A stretch of 61,136 bases of DNA, from positions 1 to 61,136 of IMG/VR virus record IMGVR_UViG_3300019124_000008; one strand, 5' to 3'. The stretch is from a virus (taxonomy: Duplodnaviria > Caudoviricetes). A model generated the notes under the pieces. That model saw nothing but the letters and a program-made list of their open reading frames with translations, did no database searches and was not told the DNA's origin. Below, piece after piece: positions 2,211 through 6,345 of this stretch. Each line of letters begins with the position of its first letter. The first letter of the stretch is position 1. The position numbers and the translations under genes are program-made.

Positions 2211-3074
2211 TTATCCGATCAAGCCGACTTCCCGGACGCCGCTGATCTTGACTTCGATTTCCTTGTTCTTCGAGACCCGCACGATACCGCTCCACTTGAC
2301 GACGTTGCCGTCATCATCGAGAATCGGCATCGCCGACGACTTGAGCCAGAGCAAGCCGCGCTTGGTGAGCATCGGAAATTCGGCTTCATACGGGTGAAGC
2401 GTTCTGACCGAATGCGACCAAAGCTCGCGCACTTCCTCGCGCCAGTTCGGGTGTATCAGATCGAAGAACCGAAAATCCTCGACGCACGACTCGTCTTCTC
2501 CCCAGATCGACCGGAAATCCTGATGCGGCGGCAGATAGCATCGTCCGTCCGGCGTCGCCTTCCAGAACAACTGCCGCTCCGCGCCGTTCCACGCATCGAC
2601 CGAGCCGAACGTTCGCTTGTCGGCTTGCGTCACCAACCCGACGACCGAGAACCTGTCGGTCAGCGAGCAGTATTCGCGGAACAACGGGTTGTGCGGCTTG
2701 AGATGAAACGTCATTCGGTCGAACCGGACATCGCCGCCGCAGTCGCACGGCACGATCTCTCTGACGACGAGTTGCGAGTAGCCGGATTCACCTTTCGGCT
2801 TGAGAACCATCAGCCGGTTGAGAATCGGCTTTGAGTAGCGGTGCGTGATAAAAATATCACCGGGATGAAAGTCGAGTTGCGCCAGCGATTCGTCGGATAG
2901 TTCGACGGCAAAGCGTCTCTGGACACCCCGCAGCCGCTCGGCGACCGCCGGAATGCGCTTGACCCGATACCATTGCGACTCGGTGGGTTCCGTATCGTAG
3001 ATAGGACTGTTTTTCTTCTCTGAAACTCCGAAAACTGACTGATCTTCGATTTCGGTAAAAAGTGTATCGCTCAT
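2211..3074 (-). CDS. S24/LexA C-terminal-like domain fused to a C-terminal PAS (PAS_3-like) domain
   Basis: FAVELSDESL..FHPGDIFI..LKPHNPLF..VVGLV resembles peptidase S24; IHPNWREEVRELW..YEAEF..WLKSSAMPILDDDGNVVKWSG is a typical PAS/PAC signature. Confidence 0.75.
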   Translation of the reverse strand: MSDTLFTEIEDQSVFGVSEKKNSPIYDTEPTESQWYRVKRIPAVAERLRGVQRRFAVELSDESLAQLDFHPGDIFITHRYSKPILNRLMVLKPKGESGYSQLVVREIVPCDCGGDVRFDRMTFHLKPHNPLFREYCSLTDRFSVVGLVTQADKRTFGSVDAWNGAERQLFWKATPDGRCYLPPHQDFRSIWGEDESCVEDFRFFDLIHPNWREEVRELWSHSVRTLHPYEAEFPMLTKRGLLWLKSSAMPILDDDGNVVKWSGIVRVSKNKEIEVKISGVREVGLIG

Positions 3075-3144
3075 AAATTATTTATCCCTCTCAAGGTTGT
3101 AGATGTGTATAGACCCGCTTGAATAAAATTAATAATAGTAGTTG

Positions 3145-3588
3145 TTAGTCGTCTTTCAGTTCCTTCATCTCGAAAGGATGCGCTCCGAGAGTCGAATTGG
3201 GAACTTCCCGTTCTGCCTTATAAAGCGGAATAAGCTCCGTATCTTCCTCATCGGACACGCCGACCGCTTTATCTCTATGAGTTGCTTCGATTAAAGATAC
3301 ACGCAGTCGGGTTGCCGGAATTTCAATAAAGATCGCTGTGGGAATAGATGAGCTTAATTTATTTTCCGTTGTTTCCTTTTCGAGAAACATCTCCCCATCT
3401 CCAGTTAAGAGCCAGTTCAGGTTGACGTTCGTGGTTTTTCTAATCTGGACGAGAACTTCGGCACTTGGCATTCTTCCACCGACATAATTTTTAATCGTAT
3501 TATATGGAATATCCGTTAGCCTTGAAATCTCTGCCATATTGTCTGTTCCGCAAACTTCCTGAAGTCTCGTGATAAATTCAGTCGGCAT
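3145..3588 (-). CDS. CI-like repressor (N-terminal HTH only)
   Basis: MAEISRLTDIPYNTIKNY..PSAEVL..VNLNWLLTGDGEM phage CI HTH; no complete S24 domain. Confidence 0.85.
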   Translation of the reverse strand: MPTEFITRLQEVCGTDNMAEISRLTDIPYNTIKNYVGGRMPSAEVLVQIRKTTNVNLNWLLTGDGEMFLEKETTENKLSSSIPTAIFIEIPATRLRVSLIEATHRDKAVGVSDEEDTELIPLYKAEREVPNSTLGAHPFEMKELKDD

Positions 3589-3668
3589 TCTTATCTCCTT
3601 TGGTGTATGGTAGTTAGGTATTTTATTATAATTATATTGTCAAGCTGACACAAGCAGCCTGAGTGCTG

Positions 3669-3727
3669 TTGACAATCTGCTCAATATGAGCTATGATTGG
3701 TTCCGAAGTGGCAGTCAATCTGCTCAC
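3669..3727 (+). promoter_or_regulatory. Rightward sigma70 promoter with CAATCTGCTCA operator repeats
   Basis: TTGACA 3669, 17 bp, TATGAT 3692; CAATCTGCTCA at 3673 and 3717. Confidence 0.7.
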
Positions 3728-3810
3728 ATTAAGAAGATAATACAACCGATAACGCAAAAAAATCAACTAAAACAGGCAGATTTTCAGGGGGAAAATCTAA
3801 ATTAACGACT

Positions 3811-4101
3811 ATGAATAGAAATAAAATTGAAAAGAGTGAAGCAGTTACATCAGACCGTAACAGCTTTCAATTCGTAAGTGAGATTGAAGTGACGACGACG
3901 GCTCGGCAGAAGCCGGACGCGGCGGCGGCATTATTCGACGCATTCGGGGAGTTGCGCGACATTAAACTCGTCACCGGAGAAATGGAAGACACCGAACTCG
4001 CCGATGCCGTCTGGAGAGCCGCCGACCGGGTGCAGATTCTTCTGGAGAATTTCTTCGACTCGACCCAAGAGCCGACCGAAGGGGGTGAGATGGTCGAATG
4101 A
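3811..4101 (+). CDS. Hypothetical protein
   Basis: First ORF of rightward operon; ATGA overlap with next gene. Confidence 0.55.
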   Translation: MNRNKIEKSEAVTSDRNSFQFVSEIEVTTTARQKPDAAAALFDAFGELRDIKLVTGEMEDTELADAVWRAADRVQILLENFFDSTQEPTEGGEMVE

Positions 4102-4631: not shown

Positions 4632-4967
4632 ATGACGCGGTATTCGGATGACGAAATTATGATCTTTGCCGGTCAGGTCGCCGACGCCGTTCTCAAGAGC
4701 CAGCGGCGTGAATACGAATACGCGCTCGACAAGCTCGACGGCTTCGAGGATATGCTTGACGAGGCGCGGAATGCGGCGGCTGACGAAGCCGAACGGGTCT
4801 TGCGCGATTACGACGGAGCGGCGACTTCCCCGCTGCCGAAAAATCTCTTGATGAAAATGGCGTCATCGGCGAGCTACGTTTTCGCCGAGCGGCTTTACCA
4901 TCTGATTCGGCAGAAGTATCCGTCAAAAAATTTTGCCGATTCGTTACGGGAGAACGTAAACGTATGA
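4632..4967 (+). CDS. Hypothetical protein
   Basis: GAGG RBS, coupled to next gene. Confidence 0.6.
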   Translation: MTRYSDDEIMIFAGQVADAVLKSQRREYEYALDKLDGFEDMLDEARNAAADEAERVLRDYDGAATSPLPKNLLMKMASSASYVFAERLYHLIRQKYPSKNFADSLRENVNV

Positions 4968-5407
4968 CGCAAGAGGAAAAAGACAGGTATTACTTGGACG
5001 AGGCTCGGCGCGTTTCGACGTTGAGCCACGACCCATCGACCCAGACCGGGTGCGTCATCGTCAGCGAGGGTATGCTTCTGACCTACGGCTGGAACCATAT
5101 CCCGCGAGGCAAAGCGGAATGGCTCGCCGACCGAGCGACGAAGCTCAAAGTCGTCACTCATGCCGAGATTCACGCGCTCGCCAGCAACGCGGGTTGGGAT
5201 TTGCGCGGTGCGACCGCCTACATTCATCCTTGGCTTCCCTGCGGGAACTGCTTTTCCGCGTTGGTCGGAGCCGGGATTGAACGGGTCGTCGCGCCGAAGA
5301 TGGATGAGGAAAGCGACCGCTACCGGCGGTGGAAGGATGACTTCGATCTCGTCCGTGAATACGCCGCTCACGCGGGTATCGGATTGGTCGAAATGGAAGT
5401 TACTTGA
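4964..5407 (+). CDS. dCMP deaminase
   Basis: SHDPSTQTGCVIV, HAE and PCGNC zinc motifs. Confidence 0.9.
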   Translation: MTQEEKDRYYLDEARRVSTLSHDPSTQTGCVIVSEGMLLTYGWNHIPRGKAEWLADRATKLKVVTHAEIHALASNAGWDLRGATAYIHPWLPCGNCFSALVGAGIERVVAPKMDEESDRYRRWKDDFDLVREYAAHAGIGLVEMEVT

Positions 5408-5579: not shown

Positions 5580-5870
5580 ATGGATAAAGAAAAAGAAATT
5601 TTCGGTGCGCCTTTTAGCGGCTTCTACGATTACGACGACTTCGGTGAAATCCCGAACCCGAAGACGGTGCATAAATTTGAAAACGGAATTTTCGTGGAAA
5701 CGGAAAATACAGTCAGCTACTACGGCTTTCGGACGGACACCCTCGCCGATCTCGAAGCGCGTTGGGGAAAATACATCGGGTCGAAGGAATTTACGTCGAA
5801 CCTCGGTGCGCGGGTCTTCAGCATTGCGCCGGGAGTTGAAGTGCTGGTCATCCAGCCGGTCAAGGGGTGA
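5580..5870 (+). CDS. Hypothetical protein
   Basis: GGGAG RBS. Confidence 0.65.
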   Translation: MDKEKEIFGAPFSGFYDYDDFGEIPNPKTVHKFENGIFVETENTVSYYGFRTDTLADLEARWGKYIGSKEFTSNLGARVFSIAPGVEVLVIQPVKG

Positions 5871-5935
5871 GGTTTTGCTTTGACTGATAGTTACGTTACA
5901 AAGTAAAAAAAGTAATGAAAAAGTGAAAAAAGCAC

Positions 5936-5964
5936 TTGACAAAAGTTACGTCGTAACGTATATT
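5936..5964 (+). promoter_or_regulatory. Sigma70 promoter with TTACG palindrome
   Basis: TTGACA 5936, 17 bp, TATATT 5959; TTACGTCGTAACGTAT 5946-5961. Confidence 0.7.
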
Positions 5965-6039
5965 AGAAAATGTCAGCGGGAAACGAAACCGAAAGACAGG
6001 AATCGAAACAAAAAAAAACTTAAAAAGAGAGGAAATCGA

Positions 6040-6345
6040 ATGAACAACAACAAAAAAGAAATGCAGGAACGCTTTGAAGCGATCAAGACGGAACCGACCG
6101 CCGAAACCGCGACGGTCGTCATCACCGGCGGCAACGGAGAAGCCGTGACCTTTGAACTGGCTTACTCGAATGAGTCGAAGATGCTCGCGGTTCACGCATC
6201 CGACGCCGACGAAGTGAACCGGGTGATTCAGGAATCGGACAATCCCCCGCTGTACGCAGTCGCCGCCATGCGCTTTAATCGTTCTCTGAGTCAGCCGACT
6301 GACCCGCTGGCGCAGCTTCTCGCCGCAGTCGCCGCCGGAAGCTAA
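6040..6345 (+). CDS. Hypothetical protein
   Basis: GAGG RBS before ATG 6040. Confidence 0.65.
   Translation: MNNNKKEMQERFEAIKTEPTAETATVVITGGNGEAVTFELAYSNESKMLAVHASDADEVNRVIQESDNPPLYAVAAMRFNRSLSQPTDPLAQLLAAVAAGS

Follow-up and report, generated by a model that had tools for sequence, protein, structure and literature searches.

A phage repressor lacking the S24 domain and a neighbouring gene that joins a remote S24-like domain to a PAS domain

A temperate tailed phage has its immunity and integration genes arranged like those of phage 186, among them a gene for a CI-like repressor without the C-terminal S24 domain (cI, 3145-3588, minus strand), followed after 70 nt by a co-oriented gene (ORF287, 2211-3074, minus strand) for a protein of 287 residues that has no recognisable helix-turn-helix (HTH) family, an S24-like domain detectable at the remote level and a PAS domain. 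Coordinates refer to IMG/VR virus record IMGVR_UViG_3300019124_000008, analysed over its whole length of 61,136 bases (hereafter the window). An earlier reading of the sequence alone (hereafter the original prediction) had delimited both genes correctly and had taken them for a split repressor carrying a sensor, an interpretation that our analysis partly supports. The component domains are of known kinds; the combination of an S24-like with a PAS domain and the two-gene form are new. In the reading that we tentatively favour, ORF287 would be expressed alongside CI in the lysogen and would work on it as an S24-like adaptor, devoid of proteolytic activity and equipped with a PAS sensor. Prophage induction is nearly always ascribed to RecA-driven self-cleavage of a one-piece repressor or to antirepressors under SOS control, and only in a few cases has a phage been found to encode a sensor of another signal. 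If the favoured reading is true, an S24 domain taken off its DNA-binding domain, apparently deprived of catalysis and joined to a PAS domain would provide a new environmental input to the choice between lysis and lysogeny, and a peptidase fold would have been turned to use as an adaptor in regulation. Two genes and a 220-bp control region make up the whole system, small enough to be reconstructed with reporter fusions in a laboratory host.

The repressor (147 residues) matches the Pfam family PF07022 (Phage_CI_repr) over residues 5-68 (nt 3385-3576), with an E-value of 4.4e-10 and 40.2 bits for a cut-off of 22. Its HTH is followed by a linker, a strand like that preceding the cleavage site of fused relatives (residues 86-98, nt 3295-3333) and an acidic tail of 49 residues. 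A six-frame search for Peptidase_S24 (PF00717) gave no match at E ≤ 10 in CI or anywhere in the window, in agreement with the original prediction of an HTH-only CI. Nor did the C-terminal part of CI match our own S24 profile (P 0.43) or its tail the C-terminal domain of 186 CI (P 0.31), and PF16452 (Phage_CI_C), which recognises 186 CI itself with E 7.2e-22, was found at E ≤ 1 in neither CI nor ORF287. Among solved structures, the closest in sequence is 186 CI (2fjr, phmmer E 0.0036), matched over the HTH only, followed by P2 C (E 0.56); in BLASTP the similarity to 186 CI spans residues 3-77 of CI (E 1e-7). When 50,697 phage records were searched with CI by tblastn, 19 records matched. The two best relatives from cultured phages were inspected and both are fused repressors with PF07022/HTH_3 and PF00717 in one chain: the immunity repressor of Rhodobacter phage RcWaterboi (239 residues, S24 E 7.5e-18) and a Vibrio phage protein (247 residues, S24 E 1.8e-25). 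Residues 3-98 of CI align with residues 25-121 of the Vibrio phage repressor (BLASTP E 5e-13). The homology ends at S98, equivalent to S121 of the Vibrio protein and thus one residue ahead of its A122-G123; CI continues with L99-I100 in place of the Ala-Gly of its relative and then with the unrelated acidic tail. As the homology reaches the residue before Ala-Gly and is lost beyond it, CI looks like an HTH-S24 repressor minus its cleavage site and core. On this alignment it would be a derivative of the HTH-S24 class that kept the HTH, the linker and the strand, the Ala-Gly site and the S24 core being gone. CI is thus not itself a fused HTH-S24 repressor with a cleavable linker.

ORF287 is intact. 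It starts with ATG, with an in-frame stop two codons upstream, and the purine-rich GAGAGGG was recognised by eye 12 nt ahead of the start. Its residues 187-265 (2280-2516) match PAS_3 (PF08447) with E 1.2e-8 and 35.5 bits, above the Pfam cut-off of 25.6, and no HTH family was matched at E ≤ 1 in Pfam, both as originally predicted. Sequence matches in the PDB were to PAS sensor domains only (3mr0, E 0.024; 3eeh, E 0.1; 3ewk), and nothing else relevant was found there by sequence. Inspection of the PAS domain by eye revealed no LOV- or FixL-type cofactor motif.

The N-terminal half had been predicted to be S24-like, which was borne out at the remote level and not at the level of a Pfam family. 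We compared ORF287 by hhalign with S24 alignments built here, the profile resting on 8, then 10, sequences taken from named records and viral loci, as searches for a diverse S24 collection gave only near-copies of E. coli UmuD or proteins resembling the LexA DNA-binding domain. The probabilities were 70.5%, 83.9% (P 7.8e-6) and 75.1% (P 2.5e-5, residues 29-152, 2619-2990). None of 200 shuffled ORF287 queries attained the real score (37.6, compared to 22.7 for the best shuffle), and the reversed sequence reached 0.2%. A hidden Markov model (HMM) of 10 S24 domains gave 12.0 bits on ORF287 (E 6.7e-6 for a single target), while the NCBIfam UmuD model aligned in register, with E 0.14, residues 52-150 corresponding to positions 27-112 of its 115. 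In the ESM Atlas model of ORF287 (predicted local distance difference test, pLDDT, 0.59), S24 proteins filled 10 out of 10 structural rows, with template modelling (TM) scores by query of 0.55-0.61 over residues ~10-157. AlphaFold2 (AF2) supplied with an S24 alignment produced a model (pLDDT 51) for which Foldseek returned LexA, UmuD', the C-terminal domain of lambda CI and, more weakly, that of 186 CI (2fkd, E 0.11); solved RecA-filament complexes of LexA, UmuD and lambda CI (8gms, 8gmt, 8gmu) were also among the matches. This last run is circular as to the fold, its input alignment consisting of S24 proteins, and we did not count it as support. Together, the sequence and Atlas comparisons support an S24 β-fold for residues 29-152 of ORF287, at the remote level only.

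It is decidedly unlikely, in our estimation, that this likeness arose by chance and that the N-terminal 160 residues have an unrelated or new fold. Such an explanation would suit the lack of any curated family match, hhalign probabilities that stay at 70-84% and the low confidence of both structure models (Atlas and alignment-guided AF2). However, independent methods share one register, no shuffled query matched the real one, all Atlas rows were S24 and the family hallmarks S63, G72, D73, N129 and G146 fall in invariant columns. Residues 71-105 (window 2760-2864) also resemble one NHL-type repeat unit, GD[IV]FI..N.[LV].V.KP.G.SGY[ST]Q.VV, a point that could be added in favour of chance. It came to light when residues 1-175 were searched by HMMER against 1.84 billion representative proteins, which returned at E ≤ 0.001 ORF287 itself and three repeat proteins (NHL-like and helical-repeat). 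We judged these three matches spurious: each protein offers 6-8 matching stretches, which inflates their E-values (3.5e-11), and a lone NHL blade cannot form a domain. The NHL likeness was accordingly judged a chance resemblance to the repeat consensus.

The catalytic residues were then located by alignment. Ser63 (codon 2886-2888) lies in the invariant serine column (LexA S119) of a MAFFT alignment that places the four other hallmark residues in invariant columns too. In hhalign, ORF287 FAVELSDESLAQLDFHPGD aligns without gap to LexA FLLRVSGMSMKDIGIMDGD, and the spacing from the serine to Gly-Asp, counted on the sequences, equals that of LexA. The serine motif is thus kept, as originally proposed. 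The accompanying claim, that the general-base lysine (LexA K156) appeared to have become the arginine of 'LVVREI', held in one part: there is no lysine at the position, and R105 is only one of four placements. MAFFT puts S100 there, BLASTP to the stand-alone S24 protein of a surveyed locus (L208, described below) puts G114 and hhalign puts D119; R105 comes from the original prediction and from a strand-by-strand mapping onto the four strands that follow Gly-Asp in LexA, in which the ORF287 strands were taken from low-confidence models. All four alignments agree that residues 95-125 contain no lysine. Residues 1-65 contain neither an Ala-Gly nor a Cys-Gly dipeptide. Canonical Ser-Lys self-cleavage is therefore unlikely in ORF287, whose N-terminal domain is probably a pseudo-peptidase as judged from these alignments. 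A weak alignment of the 186 CI C-terminal domain to the S24 profile (P 0.043) sets 'ISIREL' opposite 'VTVKRL' of LexA, an anecdotal echo of 'LVVREI' in ORF287; a literature search for LexA K156R gave nothing on the enzyme.

These residues also bear on the possibility that ORF287 works as a protease switched on by a signal and with CI as its substrate in trans, following the logic of ImmA/ImmR or IrrE/DdrO with an S24-type serine enzyme gated by a PAS domain instead of RecA*. A serine in the nucleophile column, the retention by CI of the strand preceding the cleavage site of its fused relatives and the existence of a canonical stand-alone S24 neighbour at L208 would all be in keeping with it. 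S24 enzymes, however, prefer small residues at the cleavage site, to which the Leu-Ile of CI is a poor fit compared to the Ala-Gly of its relative, and ORF287 lacks both the lysine, under any of the four alignments, and an AG or CG dipeptide in residues 1-65. We consider a trans-acting protease highly unlikely.

The idea of a split repressor was examined through the composition of the two genes and a search for traces of a former fusion. The cI gene has a GC content of 43.7% (42.6% at third codon positions, GC3) and the control region 36.5%, while ORF287 reaches 56.9% (GC3 72.9%), a composition like that of the int, primase and polA genes of the same phage. A low-GC block (34-47% GC) extends over ~3000-3870 within flanks of 52-64%; besides cI and the control region, it takes in the beginnings of the two adjoining genes, ~25 codons of ORF287 and ~20 codons of the gene starting at 3811. 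By its composition, this block resembles an immunity cassette acquired by exchange, whose joints would fall within the adjoining genes; blastn found no donor for it in the phage records. Since cI and its operators belong to this low-GC cassette, the arrangement did not arise by simple fission of a gene in place. No open frame joins cI and ORF287, and three frames of 2900-3330, from residue 85 of CI to the beginning of ORF287, contained no remnant of an S24 domain. The S24-like domain of ORF287 showed no particular similarity to those of the two fused relatives of CI (P 0.27 and 0.19). The notion of a split repressor therefore survives in the sense that the fused kin of CI carry an S24 domain and that L208 offers a precedent, and not in the sense of one gene simply cut in two.

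The same composition data could suggest that ORF287 is what remains of an older, since beheaded HTH-S24-like-PAS repressor, whose DNA-binding end was replaced by the low-GC immunity cassette, leaving a product that would be inert or else dominant-negative or anti-immunity. The joints would be marked by the GC shifts, which lie within ~25 codons of the start of ORF287 and ~20 codons of that of the gene at 3811, and an S24-like followed by a PAS domain without HTH is the order expected after loss of an N-terminal HTH. Nevertheless, we found no fused HTH-S24-PAS protein in protein, HMM or locus searches and no cassette donor, AT-rich gene starts are also produced by the constraints of translation initiation, and ORF287 is an intact gene with its ATG, its GAGAGGG and a PAS domain over the Pfam cut-off. 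We think this origin unlikely.

In order to see how often such an architecture occurs, we surveyed 80 viral loci carrying relatives of the CI HTH. The CI relative had an S24 domain in the same open reading frame (ORF) at 24 loci, was short (<190 residues) without S24 at 32, five of these being cut by the end of the locus, and was longer without recognisable S24 at 24. Among 45 distinct ORFs downstream of S24-less CI genes only one encodes an S24 domain, and no PAS family appeared there among the matches listed (25 of 28 families). A lax HMM search of the surveyed loci yielded no further cases. The single case, L208, has a PF07022 CI of 170 residues without S24 and, 44 nt further on, a stand-alone canonical S24 protein of 144 residues (PF00717, E 1.2e-21) with an Ala-Gly site, GDSL and the lysine, and without PAS; its BLASTP similarity to ORF287 is limited to E 0.063. 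The survey thus provided one instance in 80 loci of an HTH-only CI followed by a stand-alone S24 gene and, among the matches listed, none of the S24-PAS fusion. From its sequence, L208 could be an SOS-sensing two-gene repressor system. After its S24 gene comes a gene for a secreted-type SNase nuclease, the stretch from the CI gene to the nuclease gene covering 3495-5209 of L208, and the opposite strand carries an HTH_17 gene (5868-6206).

Searches for relatives of ORF287 itself brought up no true relative. A word-indexed protein search found it alone among 387 candidates, neither this search nor the HMMER search gave a match over the full length, 13 pattern stretches in viral contigs gave 0 confirmed cases, and tblastn gave no match at E ≤ 0.01 in the 50,697 phage records. 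It had no match in PHROGs, no defence family match in PADLOC, and phmmer against 2,055 ORFs of the surveyed viral loci found nothing. In the literature, we found no pairing of peptidase S24 with a PAS domain in a prophage setting, and the titles and abstracts retrieved for an S24/PAS/LexA-like sensor domain included nothing relevant.

The association between ORF287 and CI was assessed by complex prediction, which lent it weak support. The score was 0.55 (0.55, 0.01 and 0.57 in three runs), and the best of three controls scored 0.00. The mark applied here lets through 51 of 78 solved complexes and 2 of 108 mismatched pairs; scores of 0.60 or less account for only 5 of those 78 and for all four of the mismatches that pass (out of 180). 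The runs agreed on at least 15% of contacts with a partner pLDDT of at least 53, and no interface was given. As LexA and lambda CI have been solved as single-chain HTH-S24 proteins, the pass may reflect the model's memory of such proteins instead of real binding. The switch of the original prediction, ligand-gated and acting on CI, LexA or RecA*, is hypothetical, the one pointer to it being this predicted complex with CI.

In the mechanism that we favour, cI, ORF287, the excisionase-family gene and int would form a leftward lysogenic operon beside attP, whose promoter would face a rightward lytic promoter across operator-like repeats. We infer co-transcription of cI and ORF287 from this layout, and ORF287 would consequently be produced together with CI in the lysogen. 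Its S24-like domain would most likely be a non-proteolytic interaction or oligomerisation module, as is the C-terminal domain of 186 CI. ORF287 would bind CI, plausibly by docking of the cleavage-site-like strand or of the tail of CI on the S24-like core, and would serve in trans as the dimerising or cooperativity domain present in cis in related repressors. The PAS domain would make the association dependent on a signal, be it a ligand, a redox change or a partner, and the outcome would be an induction input independent of RecA-driven cleavage. We infer both the binding and its gating; ORF287 may either aid or relieve repression. A bolder form of the model, which we hold to be improbable, is a two-subunit signal-gated repressor: an S24-less CI with a pseudo-peptidase S24-like/PAS subunit seated on its leftover strand, dimerising or cooperative in one PAS state only, so that a small molecule, redox or light would flip the switch, L208 representing the version of this split arrangement that senses SOS.

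ORF287 could instead be an accessory gene expressed in the lysogen that does not act on CI, its targets being host RecA filaments, LexA, UmuD/UmuC or an unrelated PAS signalling pathway. Its place downstream of cI in the lysogenic operon recalls rexAB in lambda, its S24-like domain has neither DNA-binding nor catalytic residues, structures of RecA-filament-bound LexA, UmuD and lambda CI are among the fold matches of the guided model, and S24-less relatives of CI are mostly without an S24 neighbour, as in 44 of the 45 distinct downstream ORFs. However, ORF287 matches no PADLOC family and carries no effector domain, its composition is native to the phage backbone and not foreign, and the complex prediction with CI passed, weakly, against controls at 0.00. 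We regard an accessory role away from CI as somewhat unlikely.

Several observations weigh against an adaptor working on CI. The S24 assignment on which it depends is under every curated family threshold: PF00717 is not matched by ORF287 at E ≤ 1 and thus stays below its curated cut-off, BLASTP against LexA gave nothing, and AF2 run on ORF287 without an alignment reached a pLDDT of only 33. No relatives of ORF287 are available, so conservation, co-occurrence and covariation give no support. One of the three complex runs scored 0.01, and, unless the prior likelihood was high, a pass such as the one obtained is wrong in the majority of cases. The sharply different compositions of cI and ORF287 argue that the two genes have no long shared history. 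Short S24-less PF07022 repressors are common (three ESM Atlas clusters of them have 131, 238 and 78 members) and evidently work alone, so that CI need not have a partner. In other phages, genes downstream of cI are often accessory and unrelated to the switch, rexAB of lambda being an example. Finally, a promoter-like site, CTGAAA-16-TATTAT (9/12 consensus positions; 3132-3159, minus strand), at the 3' end of cI could allow ORF287 to be transcribed separately.

The closest known counterpart of the module is coliphage 186. Besides the homologous CI HTH (PF07022), the annotated 186 record shows cI-int-orf69 running leftward from pL, which faces pR, beside attP, and the module described here resembles it. 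Phage 186 is induced through the Tum antirepressor; no Tum-like antirepressor was recognised in the window among the matches listed (25 of 35 PHROGs families). An S24-shaped non-catalytic domain may be common to both repressor systems, judging by the Foldseek match of the guided ORF287 model to the 186 CI C-terminal domain. Pinkett et al. (2006) are said to have found a lambda-CI-like fold in the monomer of that domain. However, 186 CI has its PF16452 C-terminal domain in cis, whereas here CI ends in the 49-residue tail and the S24-like domain lies on a separate gene with a PAS domain, and ORF287 shows no sequence similarity to the 186 CI C-terminal domain. In the passages of PMC3675496 considered here, the fold of this domain is not described.

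Compared to fused HTH-S24 repressors, CI aligns through the HTH, the linker and the strand ahead of the cleavage site, and residues 29-152 of ORF287 align with the S24 core of LexA and UmuD; the alignment puts Ser63 at the nucleophile position and shows the GD and P-x-N motifs to be retained. The differences from fused repressors, LexA and UmuD are that two polypeptides are involved and that ORF287 lacks the general-base lysine and the Ala-Gly site, falls below the Pfam threshold and has a PAS domain appended. L208 has its HTH-only CI and S24 gene in the same order and orientation as cI and ORF287; unlike ORF287, its S24 protein passes Pfam with its catalytic features apparently complete. By analogy, VqmA(Phage)-Qtip of phage VP882 also offers a phage PAS protein, and the input to lysis-lysogeny proposed here would likewise be non-SOS. 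In VqmA the PAS domain is combined with a DNA-binding domain, and the protein works by switching on transcription of an antirepressor, whereas ORF287 has no HTH and no tblastn match in the phage records. ImmR/ImmA and DdrO/IrrE resemble the present pair in that an HTH repressor and an inactivating partner are encoded by neighbouring genes. ImmR/ImmA is a repressor-protease gene pair, and ImmA and IrrE are zinc metalloproteases of COG2856; ORF287 has neither the COG2856 family nor the S24 catalytic lysine.

On the minus strand, cI and ORF287 are followed by a gene for an HTH_17 protein of the excisionase family (1939-2172, 77 residues; PF12728, E 3.1e-7; phrog_66 excisionase/regulator, E 2.2e-7) and by a tyrosine integrase gene (int, 785-1906, 373 residues; PF00589, E 1.7e-26; phrog_1 integrase, E 2.9e-47), the successive gaps being 70, 38 and 32 nt. 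The control region carries a lytic pR-like promoter, TTGACA-17-TATGAT (3669-3697, plus strand, 11/12 consensus positions), and facing it a lysogenic pL-like promoter, TTGATT-18-TATTAT (3737-3766, minus strand, 9/12), both recognised by consensus match only, with start points estimated at ~25-30 bp apart. Two perfect operator-like direct repeats CAATCTGCTCA, at 3673-3683 and 3716-3726, are 43 bp apart; the first overlaps the -35 element of the plus-strand promoter, and an inverted partial copy lies at 3776-3786. The geometry, as read from these motifs, is like that of phages 186 and P2, with convergent promoters and direct-repeat operators. Rightward, the first early gene (3811-4101, plus strand) encodes 96 residues without a family. 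To the left of int, the attP-like region (1-784) has no tRNA or Rfam match and is rich in repeats: at least four copies of the TGGACACTTT type (424-444, 467-487, 684-704 and 718-738), two exact 18-nt copies (474-491 and 671-688), ATTTTGGGTCATCTGGGTCA twice (at 198 and 322), units of TGAACCAA(A/G)TGAACCAAA that make a 52-nt inverted repeat (197-248 / 324-375) and a perfect 15-nt inverted repeat (715-729 / 759-773). From their arrangement these repeats are probably arm-type Int/Xis sites of attP.

The window is the whole virus record, classed as linear with a CheckV completeness of 80%. Families for the terminase large subunit, the major head protein, the tail tube, the tape measure and endolysin are present together with a family A DNA polymerase and a primase-helicase, which identifies a tailed phage. 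Pfam recognised 16 families over the 54 ORFs of the window, most of whose proteins have no Pfam family. No close relative of the phage was found through CI or the primase-helicase in viral contigs, or through the integrase in genome contigs; for a single metagenomic instance without relatives, generality cannot be claimed. An adenylosuccinate-synthetase-like (PurZ) family is absent from the 16 Pfam families matched. The window encodes a set of nucleotide-metabolism proteins, with a dCMP deaminase (4964-5407), the N-terminal domain of a dATP/dGTP diphosphohydrolase, a nucleoside 2-deoxyribosyltransferase, metallophosphoesterases and a DNA methyltransferase, a gene content that hints at modified bases in the DNA of this phage.

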